Below, in pieces: positions 13,966-63,046 of a stretch of DNA of 64,000 nucleotides. The stretch lies in NCBI GenBank assembly GCA_964642015.1, contig CAZXLF010000006.1:58661-122660 (forward strand), read 5' to 3'. Each line of letters starts with the position of its first letter. Position 1 is the first letter of the stretch. The notes beneath the pieces were generated by a model. That model saw only the letters and a program-made list of their open reading frames with translations. It searched no databases and was not told where the DNA came from. The translations under genes and the position numbers were made by a program. Source of the stretch: an uncultured Planctomycetia bacterium. GTDB taxonomy: Bacteria > Omnitrophota > Gorgyraeia > 2-02-FULL-51-18.

Positions 13966-13973
13966 TTTAAAAC

Positions 13974-14294: not shown

Positions 14295-14399
14295 AAAATT
14301 CTCCATTTGATCGGTATAATCTACAGGAATATCATTTCAAACAAGTTACAAAAAATGAACAACGATGAAAAAGCCTTGGATTAAAAAACTGCGGTCGAT

Positions 14400-15662: not shown

Positions 15663-15785
15663 GCTTGTTGGCCAGTGATGGTCTTAAAAAGTTCTGTCTG
15701 TTGAAACTTTTTGATAATTATACCAAGATAACCGCGAAATCAGACGGAGTTTCGTCTGGGCAATGATACCCGTTGATAAGGAATC

Positions 15786-17759
15786 TCAGACCCGAATCGG
15801 AAGGATCACGAACGGAATTCCCTGCTTGTAAAATTTTCTCTGCAATACAAAAACCGTGTGATTGTGAAGGATGCGGGTGAACACCGTCTCTTCCGGAAAT
15901 ACAAGCTGGCCTCCGAAAAAAACAGCGTTAGGGTAAAGTTTTAAAAGTTCAGGCGCTATCTTTTCAGCTTCACTGACAACATCGATCCCGATATATGAAA
16001 GACCTTCGGCATAACAGCCCTGGCTCTGCATAAAATCCACGTAGCGGTTCACTTCTTTATTTATCTTATTCTTTAAATGGTCCACTTCGTCCGCGCCTTT
16101 AAAATTTCCTGCATCAATGATCCCTATTTGAACGAATACAAAATTTTTGAATGCCGTTCCAAAAAGACGGATCGAATTAAAAAGCGTGTGAAGTCCGAGC
16201 CCGTTAAATCCGTTCACCAGAAACACAGCCGTTTTTGCATCAGGCGACGTGTCCTTCGGTGTCGCTCCTTTGGGGAATTCCACTGATGCGGCTTCTTGAA
16301 GCAGGTCATTCAGGCGCCTGAGCATATGCGCGGTCTTCAGATAATGCCGTTTGACGATCACGGCGACCGCGATCAATGATCCTGTTATCGCAATAGTGAT
16401 CCATCCGCCGTCATGGAACTTCAAAATCACCACTGTCACAAGAATAAAGGTCGTCGCAATGAGGCCCAGACCTGCGATGATAAGCTTTCCCCACCAGATC
16501 CGGACCGTCTTTCGCATTTCCCACCAATGTTTGACCATTCCTAAATGCGATAAGCAAAAGGTAATGAACACATTGATGCTATAAAGAACAACGAGGAACC
16601 GGACAGAACCCTTCGTTAACACGATCGTTACCAATGCTGCCGCACCCATCCACAAGACGCCGTTCTGCGACACCAGACGGTCGCTTAGCATCGCGAATTG
16701 GGAAGGAAACCAACGGTCAAGCGCCATATTTGAAAGTATTTTCGGTCCGCCTAAAAATCCGGTCTGTGCCGCAGTAAAAAGAAGTAACGCCTCCGAGATT
16801 AATGTCACCAATACAAAAACATAACCCCCGTGTCCCCATCCGGCTGTCACTTGTTCGAATAAGACTGCATTCAGAGTCTTGCCATGTATATGCTCAACGT
16901 GGAATAAAAGATACGCAAGCATGAGACCCATAACGGTAAACGCAAGAGAAAAAGCCATGTAACGCATCGTGCTTTTACCGGTCTTTACTCGAGGTTCTCT
17001 TAAGATCGCCATGCCGTTGCTGACCGCTTCGATACCGGTAAAGGTTCCCGCGCCCATACTATAAGCGCGTAAAATCAAGAAGATCATCGCGAAAAGTCCT
17101 ATCTGGGACCGCGTGGTATGGATCTCATTAACGGTCGCATGCAAGACCCCTGAAAAATTTCCGGAATGAACGATCAGTGCGTAGACAATAACCAACACGT
17201 GGGTAAATAGAAAGATCATAAAAATAGGCACTAGAGGAATAACGGATTCTTTGACTCCGCGTAAATTCAGGATCGTAAGCAATAAAACACCGAATATCGC
17301 GAAAAAAAGCTTATAACTCTGCCACTCCACCGGCAGAAAACTGTAAATGGCGTCCGTGCCGCTAGCGATCGATATCGCGATAGTCAGAACATAATCAATC
17401 AGAAGTGCACATCCAGACACTAACCCGGCATTCGGCGACAAGAGTTTGCTTGCAACCAGATAGCCGCCGCCGCCCGCTGGAAACAATTCGATGATTTGAG
17501 AATAGCTGGCACTGATCAAAAAAACCGTAAGCGCCGAAGCTAGAGCGACAAAAATACTGAGATAATAGTGCCCGTGTAAAGCTAAAAAAGCCTCTTCGGG
17601 ACCGTAACAAGATGAAGATAAGCCGTCCGCGCCTAAACCTACCCAGGCAAAAAAAGCGATCAGCGATAAATGATGGAAGACGCTTTGGTCCAACGGGCTT
17701 TTGGCCTGGCCGATCACGGCGTGTTTTATTTTTTTCGTAAAAGATTTGGAAGCAGGCAT
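15786..17759 (-). CDS. kimA: KimA-family high-affinity K+/H+ symporter (APC superfamily) with C-terminal cytoplasmic domain, copy 2
   Basis: Blocks shared with B. subtilis KimA: LSLIAFFAWVGLGADGLSSSCYGPEEA, FPAGGGGYLVASKLL...LLIDYVLTIAISIASGTDA, LNLRGVKES, TGIEAVSNG and C-terminal TVFTRILHNHTVF. The ORF-track start is TTG; the in-frame ATG at 17759 is used. Confidence 0.8.
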   Translation of the reverse strand: MPASKSFTKKIKHAVIGQAKSPLDQSVFHHLSLIAFFAWVGLGADGLSSSCYGPEEAFLALHGHYYLSIFVALASALTVFLISASYSQIIELFPAGGGGYLVASKLLSPNAGLVSGCALLIDYVLTIAISIASGTDAIYSFLPVEWQSYKLFFAIFGVLLLTILNLRGVKESVIPLVPIFMIFLFTHVLVIVYALIVHSGNFSGVLHATVNEIHTTRSQIGLFAMIFLILRAYSMGAGTFTGIEAVSNGMAILREPRVKTGKSTMRYMAFSLAFTVMGLMLAYLLFHVEHIHGKTLNAVLFEQVTAGWGHGGYVFVLVTLISEALLLFTAAQTGFLGGPKILSNMALDRWFPSQFAMLSDRLVSQNGVLWMGAAALVTIVLTKGSVRFLVVLYSINVFITFCLSHLGMVKHWWEMRKTVRIWWGKLIIAGLGLIATTFILVTVVILKFHDGGWITIAITGSLIAVAVIVKRHYLKTAHMLRRLNDLLQEAASVEFPKGATPKDTSPDAKTAVFLVNGFNGLGLHTLFNSIRLFGTAFKNFVFVQIGIIDAGNFKGADEVDHLKNKINKEVNRYVDFMQSQGCYAEGLSYIGIDVVSEAEKIAPELLKLYPNAVFFGGQLVFPEETVFTRILHNHTVFVLQRKFYKQGIPFVILPIRV

Positions 17760-17805
17760 AAAATTTTCTTTCGCTCCAATAAATGAATTAAAGATATTTA
17801 TTACA

Positions 17806-17846
17806 AGTAAACGCCAGCGCAAAATTTTTACGCTGGCGTTTACTTT
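17806..17846 (-). terminator. 14-bp perfect hairpin between glnK and kimA copy 2 (possible attenuator or terminator)
   Basis: agtaaacgccagcg-caaaattttta-cgctggcgtttact. Downstream on the minus strand is AT-rich but lacks a clean U-run. Confidence 0.4.
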
Positions 17847-17869
17847 CTAGATGGTTATAACAACAGGGC

Positions 17870-18208: not shown

Positions 18209-18220
18209 ATATCCTCCCGA

Positions 18221-19684
18221 TTAAGCTGTCGGAAGTTCGGGATAAGCCGAACCGCCGTGTTCATGAATATCAAGACCCTGTAATTCCCCCTCTTTGGAAA
18301 CACGCAGAGTTCCTGTCAAATTCACTAGCCACATCAAAAGCAATCCACCAAAGAAGGCTCCGGCACCGATGGAAGCATTGCCAATGACTTGCGCAATGAA
18401 TTGATCCCAACCACCACCATAAAGCAACCCTTTGACCACCGCGGCTGCCGAATTGTCAGCTCCGGTCGGTGTAGGCGCTCCGAACTGTCCTGTAGCAAAC
18501 AAACCAAGACTCCAAGTGCCCCAAACACCGCACAGGCCATGTACCGGCCAAGCTCCGCACGGATCATCAACGCGAATATGTTCCAAAAAATCCGTGCCCA
18601 AGATAACTAATACGCCGGCCACAAGACCTATAACGATTGCACCACCGGGAGAAACCCAGTAGCAAGGACATGTGATCGCGACGAGGCCTGCTAAAATTCC
18701 ATTGCAAGTAGCTCCGCAATCCCATATCTTGGCCCGAGGATAAACAAAGAAAATGGCTGAAAGTCCTCCGGCGACAGCGGCAAGCGTCGTGTTGCATGCG
18801 ATACGGCCAATTCCTATCATATCCATTGCCGAAAGCGTGCTTCCGGGATTGAAACCGTACCATCCAAACCATAGAATGATCGTCCCAAGTGCTGCGATCG
18901 TCATGTCATGGCCTGGCATGGGTCCACCGCCATCCCTTTTGAACTTACGACCTAAACGAGGTCCTAAGACTATCGCACCTGCTAACGCGATCATACCGCC
19001 GATCGTGTGAACTACTGTCGAGCCTGCGAAATCATGGAACGCCGCCGGCTTGATTGTATTCAACCAGCCATCCGGACCCCATGCCCAATGACCCAAAATC
19101 GGATACATCACGCCGCTGACTACAAAACTATACAATAGGTCGCCGATGAATCCTGTGCGTCCAAGCATCGCACCGGAAGTAATAGTTGAGGTGCAATCCG
19201 CAAACGCAAACTGGAAAAGGAAATAGGCCAGCGTGGCCACACCCGTACTTCCATAGGTCTCAGGAATGCCATGCAGAAAATAATATTGATTTCCGATAAA
19301 GCCGTTGCCCGAGCCGAACATCCAAGCAAAACCCCATGCCCAGAACAAAATGCCGCAAAGACAAGTATCAATGACACCTTCCAGCAACACATTAATGGTC
19401 TCACGCGTACGGCCAAAACCCGCTTCCAGCATCATGAAACCGGCTTGCATGAAAAATACCAAAAACGCCGTAATTAGCACCCACATCGTATTGATCGGAT
19501 TAATATAAGGTGCCGGTGCAGCAGCGTCTTCTGCCCAAACCTTGGCTCCAAAATAAGCAGGCACAGCATAAATTATTGCAATGAGCAAGCCCACTCCAAG
19601 CATCTTACCGCCGAAGATCGCATAAAAGAGTTTCCTCTCTTTTGGATCCCGCATCTTTTCAAAAAACTTCTTAACTGACCTCAT
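18221..19684 (-). CDS. amtB: Ammonium transporter (Amt/MEP family)
   Basis: Amt signatures (MQAGFMMLEAGF, twin-His region) and a C-terminal tail. Confidence 0.9.
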   Translation of the reverse strand: MRSVKKFFEKMRDPKERKLFYAIFGGKMLGVGLLIAIIYAVPAYFGAKVWAEDAAAPAPYINPINTMWVLITAFLVFFMQAGFMMLEAGFGRTRETINVLLEGVIDTCLCGILFWAWGFAWMFGSGNGFIGNQYYFLHGIPETYGSTGVATLAYFLFQFAFADCTSTITSGAMLGRTGFIGDLLYSFVVSGVMYPILGHWAWGPDGWLNTIKPAAFHDFAGSTVVHTIGGMIALAGAIVLGPRLGRKFKRDGGGPMPGHDMTIAALGTIILWFGWYGFNPGSTLSAMDMIGIGRIACNTTLAAVAGGLSAIFFVYPRAKIWDCGATCNGILAGLVAITCPCYWVSPGGAIVIGLVAGVLVILGTDFLEHIRVDDPCGAWPVHGLCGVWGTWSLGLFATGQFGAPTPTGADNSAAAVVKGLLYGGGWDQFIAQVIGNASIGAGAFFGGLLLMWLVNLTGTLRVSKEGELQGLDIHEHGGSAYPELPTA

Positions 19685-19736
19685 AAACCGCCTCCTTTTC
19701 CATTTCTCTCCTCCCTTTCTTTTATTTTCCCTTTAA

Positions 19737-20468
19737 TTAATAAGCCAAATCATGGTTCATTAATCTAATGACTCCGTAACACCAATCAATGTCAGATTCC
19801 CTGACCCTGACAACCGACTGCTTAAGATCAATGGCCCGAAGAATCTTTGTTTTATTCTCGCTTGAATAGATCCGACACATCGGCGGATGGCCTTTTACTT
19901 TAATCACCACCAATTGGCCATCCTTTATCCGCTCCATCGACTTTCTGATATCGACCAGCACGATATCTCCTAACCGGCAATTGGGCTCCATGCGTTTATC
20001 GGTGATCTCAAATCCGAAAATAAATCCTGGAAAAACATCCGACGGTAAAAAACATCGTCTTTGCGTCCACTTAACGGGATTTTTGATGGCATCTAAAGGA
20101 AGGGATCTTGTCTTGTCGTTCAAAAGAGGCGCATAGTTAGGCCCTGAGATCGAAACAACCGGATCTTTCGATCCCAAAATCAAATCTCTTCGATATTTTG
20201 TTTTTCGTATGCCTTTAATCTTCATAACTTCCGTAAAAGGAATCCGGAAAATACCGGCTATTTTTTTTAGGATGTCATTCCTTAAAGGAAAAGAGCGTTT
20301 GTTCTCCCATTTGGAGACCGCCTGCTTTTTCACTCCGATCTTCCGGGATAATTCCTCTTGCGTCATTCTCAGTCCGGTCCTTAGCTCTTTTAATATGGAA
20401 CCAAATTCTTCTACAGCTATGCTCATACTGTGGTTGGGACTATTTAAAGTGTCTCTGTTTGTCATCAT
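19737..20468 (-). CDS. LexA/CI-like regulator: XRE-type HTH plus C-terminal S24 peptidase-like domain lacking the catalytic Ser
   Basis: HTH: TQEELSRKIGVKKQAVSKWE. C-terminal S24 fold: DKRMEPNCRLGDIVLVD...GQLVVIKVKG. Arg or Lys sits where LexA has the Ser-119 nucleophile (GDSM); Lys is retained. Confidence 0.65.
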   Translation of the reverse strand: MMTNRDTLNSPNHSMSIAVEEFGSILKELRTGLRMTQEELSRKIGVKKQAVSKWENKRSFPLRNDILKKIAGIFRIPFTEVMKIKGIRKTKYRRDLILGSKDPVVSISGPNYAPLLNDKTRSLPLDAIKNPVKWTQRRCFLPSDVFPGFIFGFEITDKRMEPNCRLGDIVLVDIRKSMERIKDGQLVVIKVKGHPPMCRIYSSENKTKILRAIDLKQSVVRVRESDIDWCYGVIRLMNHDLAY

Positions 20469-20525
20469 TTATTCATCAACTAAAAGCTTATTAATATCAA
20501 AATTCCATCAATTTATGTAAAAATA

Positions 20526-20552
20526 TGACATTTAAATGTTACAGCGAGATTT
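20526..20552 (-). promoter_or_regulatory. Conserved motif TCTGAAAT-N4-CTGTAACAT (minus-strand sense), copy 1, upstream of the LexA-like/amtB/glnK gene string
   Basis: 17 of 21 positions identical to a second copy at about 25060-25088 upstream of the APC-PII operon. The direct half-sites CTGAAAT and CTGTAAC are spaced about 11 bp. Confidence 0.3.
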
Positions 20553-20653
20553 CAGAGTTATTAATTGCGGGAAAACAGGGGGTTACTAAAGAAGGATTTT
20601 TACGACTTAAAAATGAGGAGGAGAAATTATAAAATTGTTAATCTTTGTGATGA

Positions 20654-21358
20654 TCACTCATCAATTCGAAGACGATAACCCACGCCGGGCTCGGTAAGGA
20701 TGTATCGGGGTCTGTTGGGATCAGGCTCGATCTTATCTCGAAGATTATTGATCGTAACTCTCACAATGTGTGAAGCATTCGGTGTCTGATCGGATTTGTT
20801 CCAAACCTCCTCCAAAAACTGGCGGTGAGTGATCACTCTGCCGGCATTCATCACGAGGATCTTTAACACATCATACTCTGTAGGAGTCAGCCGAACAGGA
20901 CTTTCATTAAGGCTGGCCGTATGCTTGGCGATGTCGATGGAGATCCCGGCCACATTGAAAACTGTTTGTTCATTTCGAGGTGTAAGGCGCCGCATTACGG
21001 CTCTTAGCCGTGCCAGCATTTCAGCGGCGTCGAAAGGTTTGGTCAGATAATCATCGGCACCCGCATCCAACGCGGCTATCTTATCCGACTGATCCTTCCT
21101 GACTGATAAAATAACTATGGGAGTCCTTGATCGCTTGCGGATCTGGCGCGTCACGTCAAGTCCATCCATATCCGGCAGCCCAAGATCCAGAATAATCGCG
21201 TCGGGATGAGATGAGACAGAATTTTCCAAGGCCTCAGCACCGTCAGAAGCCTCAAAGACTTTGTAGCCATTCGAAAGAAGCGTGGCTTTTAAGAATCTGC
21301 GAATGGTTTTTTCATCATCAACCACAAGCACCCGAAGATTATGGGACACATCCATCAT
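20654..21358 (-). CDS. kdpE: OmpR-family response regulator, KdpE-like
   Basis: REC domain (VVDDE...ILDLGLPDMDG...LTKPF) plus a winged-helix C-terminus. Close resemblance to KdpE (ILSVRKDQSDKIAALDAGADDYLTKPF). Confidence 0.75.
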   Translation of the reverse strand: MMDVSHNLRVLVVDDEKTIRRFLKATLLSNGYKVFEASDGAEALENSVSSHPDAIILDLGLPDMDGLDVTRQIRKRSRTPIVILSVRKDQSDKIAALDAGADDYLTKPFDAAEMLARLRAVMRRLTPRNEQTVFNVAGISIDIAKHTASLNESPVRLTPTEYDVLKILVMNAGRVITHRQFLEEVWNKSDQTPNASHIVRVTINNLRDKIEPDPNRPRYILTEPGVGYRLRIDE

Positions 21359-22479
21359 AGCGCCTTCGCCTCCTCCAATGGCATCAATATCGTAATAACA
21401 GCTCCGCCCTCCGGGTTATTGCCGGCATAGATCTCCCCTCCGTGCGCTTCCACGATCCCTTTGCAAATAGATAAGCCGAGGCCGGTCCCTGTTACGCGTT
21501 TCGGATTAACAGCTCTGTAGAATTTATCAAAAATACGTTTCAGATCCTCTTCCGGAATACCGAATCCGCTGTCCTTAATTTCGATCTTCACTTTTTTCTC
21601 CACGAACCTGGCTATAATCTCGACCGGCGTATAGGGTGATGAGTATTTTAAGGCATTATCTAATAAATTCATCAACACTTCCATCATCAAAGTAAAATCC
21701 ATCGGGATCAAGGGTAGATCTTTGGGAATATCCACACGGATCTGGCGTCTTTCTATCTTGTTATTAAGCTGTTGGAGCGAAGCTCGGACAATATCGATCA
21801 GTTCACAAGGCTCGGATCTCACTTTCAGCGTTCCGGCTTCCACTCGCGTCATTTCAAGAAGGTCATTCACCAGATGGTTCAAACGTCCCGAATCCTCATA
21901 CGCCGTTTCTAGGAGCTCTCTTCGGGACTCCTGGGCCTTAAGCGTCGGATCCTGTAGAAGAACGCTCAAAGTGCCCTTGATCGAAACAAGCGGCGTCCTC
22001 AAATCGTGAGAAATAGAATTAAGAAGCGCTGTCTGCAGTTTTTCCGTCTCGCGCATTAATTCCAGCTTACGGGATTCCTCGTCCAGTTTTTTCTGAAGAT
22101 TGTACATCGCGACCGCTTCGGCCTCTCTTTGCCGGGCCTGAATGGCTTGCTCCCTGGCTTTTGCGGCCAAATTGCTCACCACCAACCCCACAGCTAAAAG
22201 ACCGACAAAGGTAAATATATTTCTGACATCCGCGATTCGGAAAGACATATAAGGGGGACTTAAGAAAAAATCGAATGCCACAGCGCTTAAAATAGAGGTA
22301 ACAATGGCAGGGCCTATGCCCCATCGGACTGCCGAGAAAACAACGATCAATAGATATACCATCACAAAACTTGCCGGATCAAAGTTTGCTTTCAGATAAA
22401 TCCCGAAAAGAGACGTGAGGATCACAAGTCCCGCGGCGAAAAAATATTGATAGAAATTGCCCATTAATCTTTTTTGCAT
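21355..22479 (-). CDS. Short-form KdpD-like histidine kinase (TM region plus HisKA/HATPase; no N-terminal KdpD sensor or Usp domains)
   Basis: 4 N-terminal TM helices, H-box SISHDLRTPL, N, G1 and G2 boxes (DNALKYS, DSGFGIP, GTGLGLSICKGIV). 4-nt overlap with kdpE. Confidence 0.7.
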   Translation of the reverse strand: MQKRLMGNFYQYFFAAGLVILTSLFGIYLKANFDPASFVMVYLLIVVFSAVRWGIGPAIVTSILSAVAFDFFLSPPYMSFRIADVRNIFTFVGLLAVGLVVSNLAAKAREQAIQARQREAEAVAMYNLQKKLDEESRKLELMRETEKLQTALLNSISHDLRTPLVSIKGTLSVLLQDPTLKAQESRRELLETAYEDSGRLNHLVNDLLEMTRVEAGTLKVRSEPCELIDIVRASLQQLNNKIERRQIRVDIPKDLPLIPMDFTLMMEVLMNLLDNALKYSSPYTPVEIIARFVEKKVKIEIKDSGFGIPEEDLKRIFDKFYRAVNPKRVTGTGLGLSICKGIVEAHGGEIYAGNNPEGGAVITILMPLEEAKAL

Positions 22480-22538
22480 GAATTATGGTATTTTAACTCC
22501 AAATACTCCACCAACAAGGATAATCCTAAATAACAAAA

Positions 22539-22582
22539 CCCAGTAAAAAGCCGCAAGGAGTTTTTTCCTTGCGGCTTTTTAT
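22539..22582. terminator. Bidirectional rho-independent terminator
   Basis: aaaaagccgcaagga-gtttttt-ccttgcggcttttt: a perfect 15-bp stem flanked by A/T runs on both sides. Confidence 0.65.
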
Positions 22583-22612
22583 ACCCGAAAACCGGAAATG
22601 CGTGATCTTTAA

Positions 22613-23011
22613 TTAGATCGCTTTGATTCCGCGTTCGCCGGAGCTGATACGAACAACATCTTTGACATCATAGACAAAGATCTTTCCATCGCCGGGCTGG
22701 CCGGTCCAGGCAGCTTTGGAAACCGCCTGAATGATCGACTCAAGGTTAGCCTCAGGCACCACGATCTCGAGTCTCATCTTTGGAAGCATTTCCATTCTGA
22801 AACTCGTATCCTCAGACTTCTTGGACAACCCTTTTTGGTTTCCATGGCCTTCAACCTGTGAAACCGTCATACCAAAATAACCGGCTGTCTTAAGCGCCTG
22901 CTTTACGGCGTCGAGCTTTCCCGGCTTGATGATCACTTCAAGCTTTTTAACGGCTGAAGTGCTCTGTCCGGCACCTGTTGAATTATTAGACTTTGTTAAA
23001 ACGTCCGACAT
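22613..23011 (-). CDS. PII-family protein with a 23-aa N-terminal extension and a Tyr-less T-loop
   Basis: LEVIIKPGKLDAVKQAL...GMTVSQVEGHGNQKG...MLPKMRLEIVV...GQPGDGKIFVYDVKDVVRISSGERG. A genuine ATG start and a GGAGG RBS; 34 nt downstream of the permease-PII fusion. Confidence 0.8.
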   Translation of the reverse strand: MSDVLTKSNNSTGAGQSTSAVKKLEVIIKPGKLDAVKQALKTAGYFGMTVSQVEGHGNQKGLSKKSEDTSFRMEMLPKMRLEIVVPEANLESIIQAVSKAAWTGQPGDGKIFVYDVKDVVRISSGERGIKAI

Positions 23012-23045
23012 GATTATTTCCCTCCTCCATCACTTTGATATTCGT

Positions 23046-24974
23046 TTAAAGCGCGTACACGCCTCTTTCGCCGGTGCGGATACGCAAAGCGCTCGATGCC
23101 TCAAGCACGATAATCTTACCATCCCCTATTCCGCCGGTACGCGTTGCCTCTGTGATCACTTCCATCGTCCTATCCACATCCCAATCCCTGACGAGTATCT
23201 CTACTTTGGATTTAGGAAGAAATCGAATCGTGTCTTCCGAGCTGGCGACCCCATTTGTATCACCTTTCTGGCGGCCAAACCCACGCACATCCGTCACGGT
23301 CATGCCCATTACCAGATTGTGCTGTTTGAGCGCTGAGACGATATCACCCAACTGTTCGGGACGGATCACGCAAGTGACCAGTCGAACACGGTAGGTTTTC
23401 TGCAAGCTGGTAACTGCGACATAAAGCAAGCTGATCAAAGCCCAAGCGCCCGCGATCACAAAGCAGATCTTCGCTTCATTTTTGGCATCGGCATTTCCAA
23501 TAATGTAAAGATAGAGAATTGCCCCGGCCATGATAACGTTCGTAATGACTCCGAGCGCAGGAATAATGCCGTGTTTCAAAAGATTAAAATCTTTCCGGCC
23601 TTTGAACGCGACTATTGTCCAAACACAAGTTAGTCCATATAGAATAAAGGTGCCCAAGTTCGAAGCCAGCGTAATTCCAGTCAGACCCACGACTGATCTC
23701 ACACCGACCGCGGCGATCAGTGAAGAAACCACCACTAATACCCAAAGCGCTGTGTGAGGTGTGCTGAATTTTCCGTGCATAAATCCAAGGAATTCGGGCA
23801 ACTCCCTATCCTCGGCCATGCCGCAAGTTACACGAACCGCTGTATTCATACAGCTTAGTGTCGTGCCAACGATCGCAATGGCGACGGTAATAGCTATGGT
23901 GATCATAAAGCCAAAGCCAATACCGGGAAGCACATGATCACCCAAAAGTTTGGCCAAGTCACCGATCGGAGCGCTCGACGCAGCGGCAGCGGCCATTCCT
24001 GTCACTGCGGCTGCGGGAACCGCTGCTACCGCGGGTGTTGTAGCAGTTGCTGCGACTGCGGCCACCGCAGGAGTGGTACCAGTCAATTTCTCACTGAGCA
24101 TAAAACCTGTCGCGAAGTATTCGAAAAGATAAGCAATTGCACCTTGAACAATAAGAGCGAGAATGATGGCTTTAGGAATGGTTGTTTCGGGATTCTTTGT
24201 TTCAGCAGACAAGGCCGTACAGCTCTCAAAACCGACCAAGATAAGAATCGCAACAGTCGATTGTACCAAAACACCTTGGAGCGAATGCGGTTTAACAACA
24301 TCCCAAGCACCACTGAAAACCCACTGAGTAGCATGCTCAGGGTTCGCAAAACGATAATAAATCGCCAAACCGCTGAAAACCACCAAACTCACCCATTGGA
24401 TCACGTTGATCCAAATGTTGGTGACCGTGGATCCTGTCACTCCGCGATAAGCAATGTATCCCGTGGCTAAAGCGAACACTCCACCGATGATCGTCAATTC
24501 CGTATTTGATAATGTTTTGCCGGTAAATTGGGTATAGATGTATCCGATCAATGTTGCCATGAAAGCAACCATAACGCCTGGATAGACCCAATAGAACAGA
24601 TGCGCGGCCCAACCAGTGAAAAGTTTGCTGACGCGGGCGATAGAAGTGGGTCCGTGATCCTTTACTTTACCTTGGCGATCCAAGAAAGCTTTTTCGGCAA
24701 AATATGCGCAGCTCGCAAAACCCGCTTCTGGATAGATCTTCGCGAGTTGAGCATAAGATAAAGCCGTAAGAAATGCGACCGCCAACGCAGCAATAATGCC
24801 GAACCAAATATCGCTGGCTACTGAAGCGCCGCTTGGAGCTGTCGCAGCCGCCTGCAACTGATATGTGATCCACAAAAACGCCCCTGGCGCGATCAACGCC
24901 ATCGCATTCATTGTGGCGCCCATCAATCCCAGGGTCGGTTTTAAGGTTCTTGAACTAACTTCTGTCTGTGCCAT
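23046..24974 (-). CDS. APC-superfamily permease with a C-terminal fused PII domain
   Basis: N-terminal 12-TM APC core (FESCTALSAETKNPETTIPKAII). An internal Ala/Thr/Pro/Val-rich low-complexity insert (TGTTPAVAAVAATATTPAVAAVPAAAV...). C-terminal approximately 110 aa are RVRLVTCVIRPEQL...GMTVTDVRGFGRQKG...FLPKSKVEILV...TGGIGDGKIIVLE...LRIRTGERG, matching GlnB nearly block-for-block but lacking Tyr51. Confidence 0.8.
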   Translation of the reverse strand: MAQTEVSSRTLKPTLGLMGATMNAMALIAPGAFLWITYQLQAAATAPSGASVASDIWFGIIAALAVAFLTALSYAQLAKIYPEAGFASCAYFAEKAFLDRQGKVKDHGPTSIARVSKLFTGWAAHLFYWVYPGVMVAFMATLIGYIYTQFTGKTLSNTELTIIGGVFALATGYIAYRGVTGSTVTNIWINVIQWVSLVVFSGLAIYYRFANPEHATQWVFSGAWDVVKPHSLQGVLVQSTVAILILVGFESCTALSAETKNPETTIPKAIILALIVQGAIAYLFEYFATGFMLSEKLTGTTPAVAAVAATATTPAVAAVPAAAVTGMAAAAASSAPIGDLAKLLGDHVLPGIGFGFMITIAITVAIAIVGTTLSCMNTAVRVTCGMAEDRELPEFLGFMHGKFSTPHTALWVLVVVSSLIAAVGVRSVVGLTGITLASNLGTFILYGLTCVWTIVAFKGRKDFNLLKHGIIPALGVITNVIMAGAILYLYIIGNADAKNEAKICFVIAGAWALISLLYVAVTSLQKTYRVRLVTCVIRPEQLGDIVSALKQHNLVMGMTVTDVRGFGRQKGDTNGVASSEDTIRFLPKSKVEILVRDWDVDRTMEVITEATRTGGIGDGKIIVLEASSALRIRTGERGVYAL

Positions 24975-25059
24975 TTAATCCCCCTTTTTTGTTTCCAATC
25001 CATTCGACTTTCAAATAAAAACCTAACGATTATTTTGATGGGAAAATGATACCTTTGAG

Positions 25060-25088
25060 ATGTTACAGACACATTTCAGACAATTTAA
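25060..25088 (-). promoter_or_regulatory. Conserved motif TCTGAAAT-N4-CTGTAACAT, copy 2, about 85 nt upstream of the APC-PII start
   Basis: See copy 1 at 20526-20552. The downstream flank also shares a TCAT-ATTTT-like extension. Confidence 0.3.
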
Positions 25089-25372
25089 GGGTAGTGAAAA
25101 ATTGAGTTATTAAGATATTATAATTTTAGTTAATATTTTTAAATTATAGTGTTTATTAAATATGCCGCTTGATGACCTGTAAGCTCTTTTTATGTGTCTT
25201 GTTACATTTCAAAGCTCTTATTTTAAGATTTATGAGATCAATTTTTTCTAAATTTTAATAACAAGATGTGTTCTTGGGCAGGGAGTTTTATTACCTATTC
25301 ATCGAGAAAATTAACTTAAGATTTTTCGTGAAATGAATACTTTATCTATAATATCCGTAATCTGAGGGGTAC

Positions 25373-26695
25373 TTAGGCTAGAACTTTACGGTCTTTCAGC
25401 ATGTTATCATAAAATCCGGAAAGCGCTTGATAGAGATGTTTGGCCCTGAAAATTCGCGCCACCATATAACCAATAAGCGCTGAAAGCATGATCGGAAGAA
25501 GCATCTGATGATGTCCGGTCATCTCATAGATGATCACAAATGAAGTAATAGGCGCCTGGATCGCTCCGGAAAGAAAAGCCGCCATACCCATCACGGCGCA
25601 AGTCGCGATAGGTCCGTTTTGCCAAGATGCCGCCCATGCTCCGATAGCTGAACCCATCGATAGACATGGGGCAAAAATACCTCCCGCGATGCCGGACCAA
25701 TAAGTAAAAAGAGTCGCGCCCATTTTGGATGCCGCGAATAAACCTGGCGCGTTCTCGGTAGTCCCGTGCAAATAATTTTGCGCTACCAGATTTCCCGGTC
25801 CCATGATCCCTTTCATTCCGGTAGCAACCGCCAAAAAAAGGACCGCCCAGGCAAGAAACGTGATGAACATATACCGCTTCCATCCTTTTATCGCCATCAA
25901 ACGCCGCCTTCCTTCTACTAGAAACACCGAAAAAAAAGTGCCCCCTGCCCCGCCTATCACGCCAACGATAAGAATCATGATGATAGTAACAGATCCTGGT
26001 TCACTGAGATGTCCAAAATAGATATATTCTCCAGTCAATGTCTTTGCAGCAAGGCCGGCAACAATAATCGCCATTAAAACCATATCCTTGATACTGGCGA
26101 AATAATCCGATGAAAGCTCTTCGATCGCGAAAGTTACCCCTGCCAATGGCGTGTTAAAAGCCGCCGCCAATCCGGCTGCGCCGCCCGCCACCACAGCTGA
26201 ACGCATATTGAACGGCAATTTTAAAACACGGTGCAACGCCAAAGTGATCCCAAAAAACAAACACGCCGCAATATGGACTGTCGGGCCTTCACGTCCCGTA
26301 GAAGCACCGGCCCACAATCCGATCAAGAGAGCTGCTATTTTGATCGCCATCGTCTTGAACGAAACCAGGGGTTTTAAATCCTCAAAGTTCGAATCATTGA
26401 TATGTTTGGCCGCGAAAATAGTCTGCGGGATCCCGGCTCCGTCGGCACAAGGTGCCAAATATCGGATGAGTTCAATGGCCATAACAAAAAGGATGGGTGT
26501 CGTCACCCAACACCATAGCCCTATCCGCTGAGGATCCAAGCGATGGATATATACAAATTCAAAGGCACGCATGAATAGCACACAAACCATGCCTGTTAAT
26601 ACGGCCGCCCCTAAGTATATTCCTAAGCTGAGACCATAACGGTGGGTGAATAATTTCTTATAAAATTTATCGACTATAGCGAATGAGCGGGTCAT
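25373..26695 (-). CDS. ClC-family chloride channel / Cl-/H+ antiporter
   Basis: GAGIPQ (GSGIP-like), GREGP with the gating Glu, GIFAP and Y-containing motifs. Confidence 0.85.
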   Translation of the reverse strand: MTRSFAIVDKFYKKLFTHRYGLSLGIYLGAAVLTGMVCVLFMRAFEFVYIHRLDPQRIGLWCWVTTPILFVMAIELIRYLAPCADGAGIPQTIFAAKHINDSNFEDLKPLVSFKTMAIKIAALLIGLWAGASTGREGPTVHIAACLFFGITLALHRVLKLPFNMRSAVVAGGAAGLAAAFNTPLAGVTFAIEELSSDYFASIKDMVLMAIIVAGLAAKTLTGEYIYFGHLSEPGSVTIIMILIVGVIGGAGGTFFSVFLVEGRRRLMAIKGWKRYMFITFLAWAVLFLAVATGMKGIMGPGNLVAQNYLHGTTENAPGLFAASKMGATLFTYWSGIAGGIFAPCLSMGSAIGAWAASWQNGPIATCAVMGMAAFLSGAIQAPITSFVIIYEMTGHHQMLLPIMLSALIGYMVARIFRAKHLYQALSGFYDNMLKDRKVLA

Positions 26696-26769
26696 TAATT
26701 GTTAATTTTACCATATTTATGTTAAACCGACATTCAATAATTGGGCTATATGGATATTCGCCTGGTATT

Positions 26770-26798
26770 TGACTTTTGAAAGCAAAGGTGTAGAATAC
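26770..26798 (+). promoter_or_regulatory. Sigma70 promoter TTGACT-N16/17-TAGAAT driving the kimA leader
   Basis: Near-consensus hexamers; the predicted TSS at about 26805 leaves a 150-nt leader. Confidence 0.5.
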
Positions 26799-26804
26799 CG
26801 TTTT

Positions 26805-26940
26805 TATTTGCAGCGCCGAACCGGCCATAATATCCGGGCGGGGAACCCAAAGATTTACCGGGGCGAATCACTCATTCAAAGGTGACAGGTATTAAAACTT
26901 TTCGACCTGAGCCCGGCAGCTAACCTCGCAGGCGGACGTA
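26805..26940 (+). ncRNA. Candidate ydaO/kimA-type c-di-AMP riboswitch (cis-regulatory leader)
   Basis: The leader contains CGGGGAACCCA, GGGGCGAAUC and CCCGGCAGCUAACCUCGCAGG. As I recall it, the ydaO consensus has CGGGGnACCCA, GGGGUGAAUC and a B. subtilis CCCGACAGCUAACUCCGG block. It sits directly upstream of a KimA homologue, the classic regulated gene. Confidence 0.5.
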
Positions 26941-26957
26941 AAAGGAGTATTGAAAGC

Positions 26958-29015
26958 ATGTCTTCTGAAAACACTTCCGAGAACGTTCCTCCACCGGCTT
27001 GGTCTAACTTAAAGAAAACGCTTTTCGGCCCAGCCAGAAATCTTAACGATCCGTCGCTAGGCCACAAACTATCATTGATTGCTTTTTTCGCCTGGGTAGG
27101 CTTGGGAGCCGACGGCTTGTCTTCCTCAGCGTATGGACCTGAAGAAGCTTATCGGGCTTTGGGAAGTCACACGTATCTTGCGATATTCCTTGTTCTCGCA
27201 ACAGCCCTTACCGTTTTTGTTATCTCCTACACGTACGGCAAGATCATTGAACATTTTCCGGTCGGCGGAGGCGGTTATATTGTAGCCACAAATCTGCTTG
27301 GAAAACCGGCTGGCGTAGTTTCCGGGTGTGCTCTTTTCGTGGATTATATCCTAACGATCACTGTTTCGATCGCTGGCGGCGGCGATGCGTTATTCAGCTT
27401 GCTTCCGGCGGAACTTCGGCCGTTAAAACTACCGATCGAATTCATCGCGATCATTTTTCTGATCATCATGAACCTGCGCGGCGTCAAAGAATCGGTGACG
27501 GTTCTGATGCCGATATTCCTCACCTTTGTCGCGACCCATTTTATTTTAATATTCGGCGGCATCTTTGCGCACACTTACGATATTCATGCTGTGACTGACA
27601 ATGTGCAGCAGGGTCTTCAGTCAGGCGCTAAAGAACTGGGAATACTTGGCTTGTTCTTGGTCTTTTTGCGCGCCTATTCGCTGGGCGGCGGAACTTATAC
27701 GGGTATCGAAGCTGTTTCCAACGGTGTCAGCATTCTGCGCGAACCGCGGGTCAAAACCGGAAAACGTACGATGCTTTATATGGCGCTATCACTCGCTTTG
27801 ACCGCCGGCGGACTTTTGTTGTGCTACATGTTGGCCGGAGTAAAACCGACCGAAGGCCAAACGCTTAATACCGTTCTTTCGATGCAGCTTTTCTATGGAC
27901 TAAAATGGGGCGCTCTGCCTCTTGGACACTGGTTCGTCCTGGTCACAATATCTTCCGAAGCGATCCTTTTACTTGTTGCGGCTCAGACAGGTTTTATTGA
28001 CGGGCCGCGGGTCCTTTCGAATATGTCTCACGACGGCTGGGTGCCAAAAAGTTTTGCCGCGCTATCCGACCGTCTGACGATGCAGAACGGTATTTTCCTG
28101 ATAGGACTGGCTTCTATCGCTACTTTGGCTTACACCAAAGGGCATATCGGGATCCTCGTCGTCATGTACAGTATCAATGTGTTCGTGACATTTTCTCTTT
28201 CACAGCTAGGCATGATGCGATTTTGGATATCGCACCGCGAGAATGAAAAAAAATGGCTGCGCGAGTTAACGATCCACCTGACAGGATTCATCCTTTGTTT
28301 TTCGATCCTTTGGGTCATGATCGTGGAAAAATTCATGGAGGGCGCATGGATGACACTGATCATCACGCTGCTCTGCATCGCGCTCTGTTTTATCATCAAA
28401 CGCCACTATGATAATGTGCGCCGGAAGATCGTGGAGATCGACCGTGTTTTTTCACATTTACATTCACTGCCCGACGCGCCTACAAAACCCGAATTTAATC
28501 CGGAAAAACCCACGGCCGTGATCCTCGTCGGCGGCTACAGCGGTCTGGGTATCCATATTTTCCTGAACATCTTCCGCCTTTTTCCGAACACGTTCAAGAA
28601 TGTCGTCTTTGTCAGCGTAACAACCGTCGACTCTGATTTTTTCAAGGAAAGCGGCGAACAGCTCCACCATATGAATGAAAAAACGTATGCGATGCTGGAT
28701 AAATATGTCCGTTTTTCAGAGAAAATGGGCATTCCGGCGCGGGCTGAGTACAGCGCAGGCACCGATGTGGTTGAGTCCGTTTCTCAACTTTGCGTGGAAA
28801 TTTCGAAGAAATATTCTCACGCTGTCTTCTTTGTGGGTGAGCTTGTTTTCGAAAGAACCCAGTGGTACCACCGGATCCTTCATAACGAAACCGCGAACGC
28901 CATCCTTCGAAGGATCCGCTTTGCGGGTCTTCCGATGGTGATGATCCCGGCAAGAATTTCGGACAAAAAGATCTTTTCTAAACAGCAGGTGCCGTCTACG
29001 CCTATTTCAGCATAG
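26958..29015 (+). CDS. kimA: KimA-family high-affinity K+/H+ symporter with C-terminal cytoplasmic domain, copy 1
   Basis: Same conserved blocks as copy 2 (FPVGGGGYIVATNLLGKPAGVVSGCALFVDYILTITVSIAGGGDA, TGIEAVSNG, QTGFIDGPRVLSNMSHDGWVPK, C-terminal TQWYHRILHNETA). ATG with an AAAGGAG RBS. Confidence 0.85.
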   Translation: MSSENTSENVPPPAWSNLKKTLFGPARNLNDPSLGHKLSLIAFFAWVGLGADGLSSSAYGPEEAYRALGSHTYLAIFLVLATALTVFVISYTYGKIIEHFPVGGGGYIVATNLLGKPAGVVSGCALFVDYILTITVSIAGGGDALFSLLPAELRPLKLPIEFIAIIFLIIMNLRGVKESVTVLMPIFLTFVATHFILIFGGIFAHTYDIHAVTDNVQQGLQSGAKELGILGLFLVFLRAYSLGGGTYTGIEAVSNGVSILREPRVKTGKRTMLYMALSLALTAGGLLLCYMLAGVKPTEGQTLNTVLSMQLFYGLKWGALPLGHWFVLVTISSEAILLLVAAQTGFIDGPRVLSNMSHDGWVPKSFAALSDRLTMQNGIFLIGLASIATLAYTKGHIGILVVMYSINVFVTFSLSQLGMMRFWISHRENEKKWLRELTIHLTGFILCFSILWVMIVEKFMEGAWMTLIITLLCIALCFIIKRHYDNVRRKIVEIDRVFSHLHSLPDAPTKPEFNPEKPTAVILVGGYSGLGIHIFLNIFRLFPNTFKNVVFVSVTTVDSDFFKESGEQLHHMNEKTYAMLDKYVRFSEKMGIPARAEYSAGTDVVESVSQLCVEISKKYSHAVFFVGELVFERTQWYHRILHNETANAILRRIRFAGLPMVMIPARISDKKIFSKQQVPSTPISA

Positions 29016-29042
29016 ACTTCATTCAGACAAAAATTCAAAAGA

Positions 29043-30536
29043 TCATTTCGTAAAAAACAGCACTTCCACGTTCAGATATTTTTCATCATAGATCCTGCGG
29101 TAACGCGCCAACAAAGTCTTATCGATCAAACCTGATCGATCCTTGCTGTGTGACAAGATCACCCAGACGCGGTCATGCCCTTTGACCAATGATTCGAGTT
29201 CGCTCATCTTATCAGGCGTCACGTTCAATGAATCTTCCACAGGCACGAACCGCGTAAGCATTTGACCTTTTGGAAAAGTTTTTTTGATCAACCCTTCTTT
29301 TTTGGAATAGTATTCGAACAGCAAAGTAAAATCCCTGTGGAACACGATCAAGTCACCCGGTTTAGAGTGTTCTTCTACAAAATGAGCTGCTTCGCGGAAC
29401 TGAGTTTTTTGCGGATGACTGAAGTAAATCGTCAAACCGTAGACTGAGCACGCCAAAACAACCAGCGCCAATACCCATCGAACATGGCGTTGGCCTATGT
29501 CACAAATGCCTTTGGCGGCCAGAAGATAGAATGGAAACGTAGCAGCGATCGTATATCGCGGAGAAAAAATAGGCATCCATATAAGCGACACAACGATCGG
29601 CAGTCCCATTGTGACCAAAGTCCACAATGATAAAAGTGCGAATGAAAAAAAATAGTCTGATTTCCCGGATCGGAATGCTTTGTAGACAGAAAATGCCATA
29701 AGCAGTGCGTATAATTTCAAGAGCATGAAACCAGCATAAGAGCGGAATGTCACCCAAACAAGCTTCAATGTCGGTGTCTCGATCCAAAAATTATGATTGA
29801 TCATGCCAGCATCTTTTTTAGAGATCAGTATCCACGGCAGGTATAAAAAGAAGAGGGTGGCCTGTAAAACAATCCAGCTCTTTATTTGCTTCCAAGCAAA
29901 GTGCTTGCGCAATAAAAGCGCGGAAAATAAAAAAACATTCTGGACGATCACCGTAAAAACAGCGTAGGTATGCGTATACAAAAGAAACGCGCTGAATACG
30001 GTATAAGCCGCGCGACTTTGCATGGTATTTTTTTCTTCACGCAGTATCTTTACAAAAAAATACATCGAGACTAGAGACAAAAACGCCATCAAGCTATAAC
30101 TTCTGGCTTCCTGCGAATAAGCGACATGGAACGTGTTGAGCGCCATGATAGCGGCGGCTAAAAGACCGGCGCTTTCATTAAAAAGGATCCTGCCCAATAA
30201 ATAGATCCACCAGATCGCAAAGACGCCGAATATCACCGAAGGAAAACGAAGCGAAGCCTCACTTTCCCCGAAAATACTTACCCATATATGCATGATGCAG
30301 GAATAAAGCGGCGGGTGAATGTCTTCCAGAGAGTTTTCCATGATCCCCGCAAGATCATAATGGGCGACTTGCCTCGTGCAATCTTCATCCATCCAAAGAC
30401 TTTCGTGGCCGAGATGATAAACGCGTACAAAGATCCCCGCGCAGAGGATCAGAAAAAATATCCAACGGTACTTTGTTGAGGCGCTTTTAACTGAATGAGT
30501 ATTTTCCAGGCTCACCTCTTGATCGCTCCCAGACAT
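29043..30536 (-). CDS. GT-C fold glycosyltransferase of the ArnT/PMT (GT39/GT83-like) family
   Basis: About 12 TM; the N-terminal DE-containing loop (LWMDEDCT) and hydrophobic architecture are typical of PMT_2-type dolichyl/undecaprenyl-phosphate sugar transferases. Confidence 0.6.
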   Translation of the reverse strand: MSGSDQEVSLENTHSVKSASTKYRWIFFLILCAGIFVRVYHLGHESLWMDEDCTRQVAHYDLAGIMENSLEDIHPPLYSCIMHIWVSIFGESEASLRFPSVIFGVFAIWWIYLLGRILFNESAGLLAAAIMALNTFHVAYSQEARSYSLMAFLSLVSMYFFVKILREEKNTMQSRAAYTVFSAFLLYTHTYAVFTVIVQNVFLFSALLLRKHFAWKQIKSWIVLQATLFFLYLPWILISKKDAGMINHNFWIETPTLKLVWVTFRSYAGFMLLKLYALLMAFSVYKAFRSGKSDYFFSFALLSLWTLVTMGLPIVVSLIWMPIFSPRYTIAATFPFYLLAAKGICDIGQRHVRWVLALVVLACSVYGLTIYFSHPQKTQFREAAHFVEEHSKPGDLIVFHRDFTLLFEYYSKKEGLIKKTFPKGQMLTRFVPVEDSLNVTPDKMSELESLVKGHDRVWVILSHSKDRSGLIDKTLLARYRRIYDEKYLNVEVLFFTK

Positions 30537-31183
30537 TCTTCGGTATCGTTGGCCGGAGAATTTACTGCCCTAGAAACCGGGTACGCTTCCATCTCTTCGC
30601 TTGAATAAGGTTTAAGAAGCTGGGTCAAAACCGGTTCATCTTTATTTTCCGGATCAAGCCATATCTCTCTGGCCTCGCCATCCAAAATAACCGGCATCCG
30701 GTCATGGATCGGTTTCATCAATTCATTCGCGCCGCAGGTAATGATCGCGCAAGTGCGGATTTCCTGATCTTTAGGATCTTTCCAATGCGACCAGAGCCCC
30801 GCAAATGTGAAAGGTTCGCCGGTTTTTAGATGCACAAAATACGGTTGCTTACCGTGCGGCGACTCTGCCCATTCATAAAAGCCATCGGCAAGAATCAGGC
30901 ATCGATGCTTATGCAGCAGGCCTTTGAAACTGGGTTTTTCCGCCAGCGTTTCAGCTCGCGCGTTGATCATTCTCTGACCGATGGCTTCATCCTTCGCCCA
31001 AGATGGGACAAGCCCCCATCTCAAAGGTTCGATATGCGGCTCTTTTTCATTGATCACAGCGGCTATTTTTTGAGAAGGCGCAATATTAAAACGCGGCTTG
31101 AGAAGATCGATTTCTTCCTGTTTTATTTTTAACTCTTTGGCTTTTATGTTTTTTGGTTTGGATAGACTAAAACGTCCGCACAT
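30512..31183 (-). CDS. SOS-response-associated peptidase (SRAP/YedK) abasic-site processing protein
   Basis: N-terminal MCGRF (catalytic Cys2), then PRFNIAPSQ, RWGLVPSW and ADGFYEW motifs. Confidence 0.8.
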   Translation of the reverse strand: MCGRFSLSKPKNIKAKELKIKQEEIDLLKPRFNIAPSQKIAAVINEKEPHIEPLRWGLVPSWAKDEAIGQRMINARAETLAEKPSFKGLLHKHRCLILADGFYEWAESPHGKQPYFVHLKTGEPFTFAGLWSHWKDPKDQEIRTCAIITCGANELMKPIHDRMPVILDGEAREIWLDPENKDEPVLTQLLKPYSSEEMEAYPVSRAVNSPANDTEECLGAIKR

Positions 31184-31207
31184 CGGATCAATACCCCACC
31201 GGGCATA

Positions 31208-31996
31208 TCATCGGGGGATCCTGGGATCCATTTTTTCTAAAGTTTCGGTAAGGACTTGGGAAATAGCCGCGTTCCTGACCCATTTGTGATCCGAAGGGAT
31301 AACATACCACGGCGCCCAACCAGTCGAGCATTGGGTCAACGTTTCTTCATAAGCGCTCATGTATTTTTTCCAAAGCTTGCGCTCAAGCTCATCAGCTTTG
31401 TTGTATTTCCAATGTTTGGATCCCTCTTTCAGGCGGTCCTTCAGGCGTTGACCTTGTTCTTTCCTGCTGATATGCAGAAAAAATTTGAGGGTCGTCACAC
31501 CGTTCTCAAAAAGGTACCGTTCAAAATCATTGATCTGCCTGCACCGGAGCCGGAGAGTTTCCTTAGGCAAAAGCTTATGCGCAAAATTCACCAAAATATC
31601 TTCGTAATGAGAGCGGTTAAAAATACCGATCATGCCTTTCGACGGAATATTTGCGTGCACACGCCAAAGAAAATCATGGGACGCTTCCTCCTCAGAAGGC
31701 TTCTTGAAAGAAACGACACGGCACCCTTGAGGATTTACCCCTGAAAAAATATGGCGCACCACACCGTCTTTTCCGCTGGTGTCCATTCCTTGCAGTACGA
31801 CCAAAAGTGCCTGCTTATGTTCTGCATAAAGCCGATACTGGAATTTCTCCAGTTTCTCCAGACGATCATCCAGCAGCGCTTTGACATCATCCTTTTCGAG
31901 TTTTAACTTATCCGCTGGGTCGCGTTGATAAAGGCGGGCCGATGATCCGGGACGCACTGTAAGATTACGAAACTTTTTATCTGATTTGCCAGACAT
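31208..31996 (-). CDS. ppk2: Polyphosphate kinase 2 (PPK2 family)
   Basis: Walker A-like QGMDTSGKDG, a SFKKPSEEE...DFLWR lid and a NRSHYED motif. Confidence 0.8.
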   Translation of the reverse strand: MSGKSDKKFRNLTVRPGSSARLYQRDPADKLKLEKDDVKALLDDRLEKLEKFQYRLYAEHKQALLVVLQGMDTSGKDGVVRHIFSGVNPQGCRVVSFKKPSEEEASHDFLWRVHANIPSKGMIGIFNRSHYEDILVNFAHKLLPKETLRLRCRQINDFERYLFENGVTTLKFFLHISRKEQGQRLKDRLKEGSKHWKYNKADELERKLWKKYMSAYEETLTQCSTGWAPWYVIPSDHKWVRNAAISQVLTETLEKMDPRIPR

Positions 31997-32025
31997 ATGA
32001 AAATGTATCGATACGGCGGTCTGAA

Positions 32026-32469
32026 CTATTGCTTAATATAATACCCTGCCAGACGCCACTGACTGTCATTATCCTTCATAACGGTGACAGTTTCAAAAGC
32101 CGATTTCTTGTTCTCAAAAAAAGTATAATAACCCAACACATAATATTCGCCATCAGGAGCACCCGGTAATTTCGTAGTAAATTGTCTTGTGCTTAAATTA
32201 CGGGATACCAAACCTCCGAACACTTTACGAGCGGCCGAAAGCTGCGTAATGAACTTATCTTTCTGGGCCATTGTTTTTAAATACACGCTGCCGGCATCCC
32301 AAGCTTCTGCATACTGCGCTTTATCAATAGCTGTTAAAGCTGTCTGCGACGCAGTAACGGCTGCCTGATCGCGAGTCTCGGTGTTTGGGACTTCCGCAGC
32401 CGACGCCTGATTAAAATTTATCAAGAAAAGAGCCGCAAAAAACAAAGCCAACATAACTTTTTTCTCCAT
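32026..32469 (-). CDS. Secreted DUF4019-like protein
   Basis: Signal peptide; resemblance to DUF4019 family (recall only). Confidence 0.4.
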   Translation of the reverse strand: MEKKVMLALFFAALFLINFNQASAAEVPNTETRDQAAVTASQTALTAIDKAQYAEAWDAGSVYLKTMAQKDKFITQLSAARKVFGGLVSRNLSTRQFTTKLPGAPDGEYYVLGYYTFFENKKSAFETVTVMKDNDSQWRLAGYYIKQ

Positions 32470-32606
32470 CCACGTCCTCCTTTGATTTTATCTATAATTA
32501 GACAGAAAGATTTTATGCGCGCTTCTTTGAAAAGCGGTCTCTCACGAAAACTCTAGCAAGTTCTTCGGTCACAAGAGGGATACTTTCTTTTCTTGGCATG
32601 GAGGTT

Positions 32607-61814: not shown

Positions 61815-61819
61815 ATTGT

Positions 61820-62975: not shown

Positions 62976-63046
62976 TAAAAAATTCAGTAAAATCCATGAA
63001 CGAAAACAAGGGAGTTCGTCGTCTTGTATGGTTAAGGAGGACAGCT

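Follow-up and report, generated by a model that had tools for sequence, protein, structure and literature searches.

A predicted c-di-AMP riboswitch, very probably a translational OFF switch, in front of a kimA-like gene of an uncultured bacterium

Does the leader of a kimA-like gene from an uncultured bacterium carry a c-di-AMP riboswitch and, if so, at which level would it act? The question is raised by a 64,000-nt stretch of DNA (hereafter the window), for which a first-pass annotation had proposed a ydaO-type element behind a near-consensus promoter and upstream of a KimA homologue. KimA is the classic target of the c-di-AMP riboswitch in Bacillus subtilis (PMC9960051). We consider it very likely that a functional-looking c-di-AMP riboswitch at 26804-26949, expressed from the TTGACT/TAGAAT promoter, controls the kimA-like gene as a translational OFF switch. 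The features discussed are collected in Table 1.

Table 1. Features of the kimA-like locus and of its surroundings (window coordinates)
Feature	Position	Strand	Basis or remark
-35 hexamer TTGACT	26769..26774	+	consensus scan; TTGACA-like hexamers equivalently placed in most of 46 leaders
-10 hexamer TAGAAT	26791..26796	+	consensus scan; 17 nt before P1
Aptamer RF00379, full-length	26804..26949	+	cmscan 80 bits; R1 122 bits
P1 5' strand CGCC	26814..26817	+	Rfam alignment; pairs with 26931-26934; covariation in 47 distinct leaders
Helix CCG/CGG	26821-26823 with 26835-26837	+	Rfam structure projection
Helix GCGGGG/CCUCGC	26838-26843 with 26924-26929	+	Rfam structure projection
Helix GGG/CCC	26861-26863 with 26912-26914	+	Rfam structure projection
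Helix CACU/GGUG	26869-26872 with 26881-26884	+	Rfam structure projection
Last hairpin stem AGGU/ACCU	26887-26890 with 26905-26908	+	Rfam structure projection
Pseudoknot loop strand CUUUUCG	26898..26904	+	last-hairpin loop; complementary to tail
P1 3' strand GGCG	26931..26934	+	Rfam alignment; covariation
Pseudoknot tail strand CG(U)AAAAG, register i	26937..26944	+	homologous to relatives
Pseudoknot tail strand AGGAGU, register ii	26943..26948	+	alternative; pairs with ACUUUU 26897-26902
Shine-Dalgarno (SD) AAGGAG	26942..26947	+	read from sequence; 10 nt before ATG; starts 8 nt after P1
kimA-like gene (copy 1), 685 aa	26958..29015	+	Pfam, PDB, Foldseek; predicted APC-superfamily K+/H+ symporter with cytosolic C-terminal domain
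Second kimA-like copy	15786..17822	-	46% identical to copy 1; probable start ATG 17759
CitMHS_2	14400-15662		in ion cluster
glnK and amtB	17870-19684		in ion cluster
HTH/S24 repressor	19737-20468		in ion cluster
OmpR-type response regulator	20654-21358		in ion cluster
KdpD C-terminal-like histidine kinase with DUF4118	21355-22479		in ion cluster
APC-P-II fusion, 642 aa	23046-24974	-	AA_permease 50-492; P-II nitrogen-regulator domain 531-636
ClC channel	25373-26695		in ion cluster
Ion_trans_2 K+-channel-like gene	45689-46525		beyond ion cluster
Eco47II-type restriction endonuclease with C-5 cytosine methylase	60543-62527
ORF6N-domain gene	62996-63586

The aptamer and its promoter

The ydaO-type assignment was borne out by the Rfam search (cmscan), in which the c-di-AMP/ydaO/yuaA model RF00379, whose gathering score is 38, matched the plus strand with 80.0 bits and over its whole length (model positions 1-134/134, 3' tail included; E 5.8e-17 for the 64-kb window against 4227 Rfam families). 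The three motifs on which the first-pass annotation had relied, CGGGGAACCCA (26839-26849), GGGGCGAATC (26860-26869) and CCCGGCAGCTAACCTCGCAGG (26912-26932), are present as it quoted them. No other Rfam family reached its gathering threshold in the 64-kb window, and a permissive scan of 13500-32500 (E <= 0.5) returned nothing besides the RF00379 match. When the Rfam structure was projected onto the window, 25/26 consensus pairs proved to be standard base pairs, and the nested helices of the supposed pseudo-twofold architecture, with P1 around two three-way-junction halves, can indeed be formed by this leader. The single-stranded conserved cores, as read from the sequence and the Rfam alignment (GCGGGGAACC, GGGGCGAAU and GAGCCCGGCAGCUAACC), are present. 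A covariance model, R1, built from ten kimA leaders with the window included, gave the window aptamer 122 bits, a score that is partly circular because the window is among the seed sequences. The stability of a nested-only thermodynamic fold of the leader is not above that of shuffles (z +1.56), a calculation that can model neither a pseudoknot nor a ligand. Between the end of the aptamer and the ATG of the KimA-like gene, which is on the same strand, there are 8 nt. By family membership, 26804-26949 is a c-di-AMP riboswitch, predicted to bind this ligand, and its annotation under that label is justified.

The promoter hexamers are also as previously described, with 10/12 consensus matches and a 16-nt spacer. 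Such a match alone is not above chance (3 sites in the region versus 4.3 expected from shuffles), and its support comes from comparison: in 59% of the 46 homologous leaders, P1 is preceded at 6-23 nt by the end of a sigma-70 site that scores 9/12 or better, a frequency that drops to 1.8% when random anchor points of these loci are taken, and the promoter region is identical at 29/33 positions between the window and its closest orthologue (locus L162). Because of this conserved position and identity, the window promoter is very probably real. Transcription would start near 26802-26805, about 10 nt before P1, and the leader would measure about 155 nt (from ~26803 to the ATG at 26958), close to the ~150 nt estimated at first.

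The KimA-like transporter, its second copy and their neighbourhood

The product of the gene behind the leader matches AA_permease_2 in Pfam, and the sole PDB sequence found at E <= 0.001 is that of B. subtilis KimA (6s3k/8b70/8b71; E 1.4e-60, residues 33-496). In KimA, a transporter to which the KUP family name is applied, K+ is coordinated by Asp36, Tyr43, Thr230 and Tyr377 (PMC10284832), which correspond in the KimA alignment to D52, Y59, T248 and Y404 of the window protein, none of which varies among 30 aligned homologues. The AlphaFold2 model (mean pLDDT 79) has an alpha/beta C-terminal domain at 519-667, and its top three Foldseek matches are KimA structures (E 1.4e-24 to 1.5e-19, 630-646 aligned columns, cytosolic domain included), with the next family, NKCC1 (E 1e-11), 13 orders of magnitude weaker. 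Sequence, K+ ligands and predicted fold thus agree on the KimA homologue recognized in the first-pass annotation. To judge from its sequence, the copy 1 product belongs to a longer, distinct KimA subfamily, about 25-33% identical to KimA. Its closest named homologues come from metagenome-assembled genomes (MAGs) of Omnitrophota (63-70% identity), Verrucomicrobiae and Deltaproteobacteria. For 26958-29015 the label of KimA-family K+ transporter, in place of "amino acid permease", is justified. Among the c-di-AMP-binding residues of KimA (Arg337, Gln581 and Ser582), the first is replaced by Lys364 here, the family consensus being Arg, while Gln581/Ser582 (ILHNQS) become Glu644/Thr645 (ILHNET) in a local alignment that is not significant alone; L641, H642 and N643 of the latter stretch are invariant among homologues. 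Direct inhibition of the KimA-like protein by c-di-AMP is possible.

The second kimA-like copy had been said to lack the space for a riboswitch, and the gap of ~110 nt that separates it from the upstream glnK agrees with this, as do the RF00379 and R1 searches, neither of which finds an aptamer there. The genes stand in the row amtB-glnK-kimA2-CitMHS_2, and the same set occurs at loci L167/L168 in the order riboswitch-kimA-amtB-glnK-CitMHS_2. Co-transcription of copy 2 with the nitrogen operon is plausible, and a division of labour between the two kimA copies is a reasonable reading. Between glnK and kimA2 (17808-17836, minus strand) lies a strong, perfect 11-bp hairpin, AAACGCCAGCG-loop-CGCUGGCGUUU, with no clear U-tract after it, which could be a terminator or attenuator that separates, or partly couples, the nitrogen operon and kimA2. 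Because the mechanically assigned start of copy 2, TTG 17822, falls inside this hairpin, its real start is probably ATG 17759.

The window ORFs of at least 150 aa showed neither a diadenylate cyclase domain (DisA_N-type) nor one of a c-di-AMP phosphodiesterase. The region 14400-29015 is a cluster of genes for monovalent-ion homeostasis. It includes the APC-P-II fusion, a transporter that is unusual in having its own P-II sensor; the fusion gene is located between the KdpD-like/response-regulator pair and the ClC gene, and about 400 nt of AT-rich leader (24975-25372) precede it. Farther along, two 303-aa ORFs with HTH_23 and Fic/DOC domains (52214-53125 and 54584-55495, both on the minus strand) have the same Pfam scores and may thus be copies of one duplicated element, about 2.4 kb apart; since restriction-methylase and ORF6N genes lie near this pair, the end of the window looks like a mobile region or one rich in defence functions.

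Expression platform in related leaders and in the window

About 167 loci encoding KimA-like relatives were collected from genomes and metagenomes, and the R1 search returned 48 aptamers from 46 sources, each of them preceding a kimA-like ORF in the orientation of the gene (19/80 genome loci, among the matches listed, and 23/80 metagenome loci). With 46 of the about 167 loci, spread over many phyla, bearing an aptamer directly 5' of the kimA-like gene, the pairing of riboswitch and gene is widespread across phyla, yet patchy. In an alignment of 47 distinct leaders that was itself fitted to the model, 96% of the cells were paired versus 39-51% with slid partners, and 17/25 pairs showed changes on both sides, values that were reached by 0/500 shuffles.

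The loop of the last hairpin is pyrimidine-rich in the relatives, conserved and complementary to the tail behind P1. Counted at a fixed register this pairing gives a modest signal (71% paired versus 43-65% slid), because clades differ by small indels, and a permutation test on duplex energies is the better measure: over the 46 loci, loops and their own tails reach a mean of -8.9 kcal/mol, versus -6.6 for cross-pairs (0/5000 permutations attained the own-pair mean) and -5.5 kcal/mol for shuffled loops. The two strands covary, as seen in CUUUUCGA/UCGAAAAG (L165-L167), UUCUUCUC/GAGAGGAA (L083-L085, L089), CUUCCAAG/UUUGGAAG (many deltaproteobacterial loci) and CCUUCAC/GUGAGGG (L148, L149). On this comparative evidence the loop-tail pairing is recognizable as the known long-range pseudoknot of the c-di-AMP riboswitch class. 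The related tails are purine-rich, and 37/46 hold an SD-like tetramer no more than 14 nt from P1. A pseudoknot strand that doubles as SD is the usual arrangement in the kimA-like leaders of many phyla, which generalizes a mechanism shown by experiment in one thermophile.

Other arrangements were also seen among the relatives. A gap of 60-315 nt separates aptamer and kimA in L125 (1402-1590), L117 (1960-2200), L159, L152 and L057 (Smithellaceae/Syntrophaceae-type), and also in L045, L055, L076 and L104; in these loci the pseudoknot/SD tail is followed by a short ORF, not by kimA. In one group this ORF (44-63 codons) has the conserved start MFILL(S/L)xDVLIL(R/Q)(L/I)C, which overlaps an AAGAAGA...UCUUCUU hairpin, and in other loci the ORFs are of 14-33 codons and end near the kimA start; they may constitute a leader-peptide or coupled-translation platform for this riboswitch class. 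Some deltaproteobacterial MAGs have tandem kimA-like genes, each with its own c-di-AMP aptamer (L045, 373-507 and 2739-2874; L055, 2727-2862 and 5067-5202). In the GC-rich leaders L050/L153, L029, L156, L062, L127 and L059 a tail UCGAAGGAG... is followed by ...AACCUCC..., with possible back-pairing about 20-70 nt after P1, and the real SD of L050/L153 is a repeat of the tail motif, CUUCGAGGAAAUC, located about 50 nt farther downstream; a competing-helix platform more elaborate than that of the window is suggested by these features.

In the window itself, the terminator scan found no terminator-like site on the plus strand of 26797-26957, and the interval from the aptamer to the ATG has no stem followed by a U-tract. 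P1 ends at 26934, just 23 nt short of the ATG, and the pairing of the SD with the canonical anti-SD is predicted at -8.2 kcal/mol. With no terminator present and the SD right behind P1, the switch most likely acts on translation, via the pseudoknot, and is not of the terminator type of B. subtilis ydaO. In register i, seven pairs between C26898-G26904 and C26937-G26944, with U26939 bulged, are predicted at -1.7 kcal/mol and overlap the first G of GGAG only, whereas register ii, equal in energy (predicted -1.6 kcal/mol), covers the whole SD. The same-register pseudoknot in the relatives is predicted at -7.4 to -8.3 kcal/mol, and by duplex energy that of the window is among the three weakest of the 46 loci. 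Its loop, CUUUUCGA, is that of L165-L167, where the tail pairing is perfect; the window tail reads GACGUAAAAGGAG and theirs UCGAAAAGGAG, and two small indels (GACGUAAAAG versus UCGAAAAG) bring the helix from -7.4 to -1.7 kcal/mol. The window switch may be weaker, or the alternative register may be used.

Two other ways of masking the SD were set aside. An extension of P1, with the 5' tail upstream of P1 pairing to the SD, was suggested by CUU/CUUU 5-10 nt upstream in several relatives and was dropped because the -10 hexamer lies only 6-23 nt from P1, so that most of this tail is probably untranscribed; in the window the complementarity is just U:A and U:G, and it is the loop-tail pseudoknot that has statistical support instead. 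The minimum free energy fold also pairs CUUCU (26961-26965) of the early coding region with the SD, and GUUCCUC (26984-26990) with GGGGAAC of the aptamer. Both pairings were taken as chance, because shuffled sequences fold as stably and conservation is lacking in the N-terminal coding sequence.

Proposed control, rival readings and known systems

In the mechanism that we propose, transcription from the promoter at 26769-26796 would yield a leader with the aptamer. At high c-di-AMP, two ligand molecules would lock the pseudo-symmetric aptamer together with the long-range pseudoknot, in which the loop (26898-26904) pairs with the purine-rich tail (26937-26944 or 26943-26948). As this tail overlaps or abuts the SD (26942-26947), the 30S subunit would be excluded and KimA synthesis would fall, while at low c-di-AMP the tail would be free and the kimA-like gene translated. 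K+ uptake would thereby be tied to c-di-AMP in this organism, as in Bacillus. Against the mechanism we counted the weak pseudoknot of the window, the nested-only fold with its shuffle-like stability, the failure to find a cyclase or phosphodiesterase domain among the window ORFs of at least 150 aa, and the three closest orthologues, which are without an aptamer.

It is improbable, in our view, that the riboswitch acts mainly on transcription, either by a non-canonical attenuator or by Rho-dependent termination after blocked initiation. Rho-dependent polarity is, however, common after translational repression. The B. subtilis prototype works by premature termination, and in Streptomyces a riboswitch of this class that has no canonical terminator reduces the amount of transcript (PMC9960051); against this stand the short distance between P1 and the ATG, devoid of a stem with U-tract, and the fact that what is conserved is an SD-like tail within the pseudoknot.

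The orthologues bear on a second alternative. None of the three closest to copy 1 (L162, L163 and L164; 79-82% protein identity) has an aptamer, so it is dispensable in close relatives. We compared window 26766-26798 with L162 2432-2470, and also L163 1454-1637 and L164 119-357. The L162 leader has about 40 nt versus about 155 nt in the window, at 82% protein identity, and the difference looks like an aptamer-sized indel between promoter and SD, so that the riboswitch would have been gained or lost recently. The contig of L162/L165 does have a riboswitch, at its second kimA paralogue, whose identity to copy 1 is 72%. A turnover in which a module of ~125-135 nt is gained or lost between promoter and SD, with the window copy as an intermediate, is a tentative reading that we regard as possible though doubtful; if true, the window would hold a weakened or retuned switch, or one heading to loss, its core intact and its pseudoknot-SD link eroded.

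In this second alternative the aptamer would be a decaying or relaxed remnant, still recognizable and with no meaningful control of kimA. The two tail indels opposite an unchanged loop CUUUUCGA, with the loss of helix energy relative to L165-L167, speak for such erosion, as do orthologues in which a homologous promoter is not followed by an aptamer, be it through loss or from the outset. However, five to six base pairs of pseudoknot are enough in a crystallized member of the class (nucleotides 83-88 with 125-130; PMC11963983). The window core is also intact, at 80 bits and with none of the nested helices or conserved junctions missing, and the alternative register is still able to cover the SD, so that we give the remnant reading a low probability.

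Specificity-switched variants exist in other riboswitch classes, and in all the kimA leaders studied CCUGAGCCCG and GGGGCGAAU replace the CCCGAACCCG and GGGGUGAAU of the Rfam consensus, but a ydaO-fold variant that senses another ligand is highly improbable here, given the high score against the c-di-AMP model, the K+ importer as canonical c-di-AMP gene association, and substitutions that are common to many phyla and inside the normal variation of the family.

The translational OFF switch preferred here joins a known riboswitch class, its classic target and an already described pseudoknot/SD platform, and is a correct but ordinary example that raises no new question. With it, the classic pairing of c-di-AMP riboswitch and kimA extends beyond the Firmicutes to an uncultured lineage whose closest named relatives are Omnitrophota-type MAGs. 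Among the known systems, the nlpC riboswitch of Corynebacterium glutamicum is similar in lacking a canonical terminator and in evidence that points to translational control; this action was inferred, with a pairing proposed between a CTCC element and the ribosome-binding site (PMC9960051). Its target, however, is a cell-wall peptidase and not a K+ transporter, and the CTCC mechanism is not established (PMC9960051).

At the level of the protein, the window transporter shares with B. subtilis KimA (6s3k, 8b70, 8b71) the APC/LeuT-fold membrane domain, the cytosolic (PPAT-like) domain and the K+ ligands. It differs in its length (685 aa versus 607 aa), in its place in a distinct long subfamily, in c-di-AMP-contacting residues that are merely similar, and in the orientation of the domains in the model (rmsd about 14 A). 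At the level of the RNA, the B. subtilis ydaO (kimA) element has the same aptamer family, the same type of target, a KimA K+/H+ symporter, and the same presumed outcome, in which high c-di-AMP turns K+ uptake off, but it uses an intrinsic terminator (PMC9960051, PMC11963983), whereas the window leader is without one and has its SD directly behind P1.

In the riboswitch of Thermoanaerobacter pseudethanolicus (riboCdA), a pseudoknot driven by c-di-AMP sequesters the SD and turns translation off, as supported by smFRET, mutation and reporter data (PMC11963983). The window pseudoknot is AU-rich and bulged in comparison, predicted to be much weaker and ambiguous in its register relative to the SD, and the organism is uncultured and outside the Firmicutes. 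Both RNAs share the Rfam family, the P1-P7 architecture, loop and tail strands for a pseudoknot after P1, whose pairing in the window is a weak prediction, an SD in or next to the tail, the absence of a terminator and the same proposed logic.
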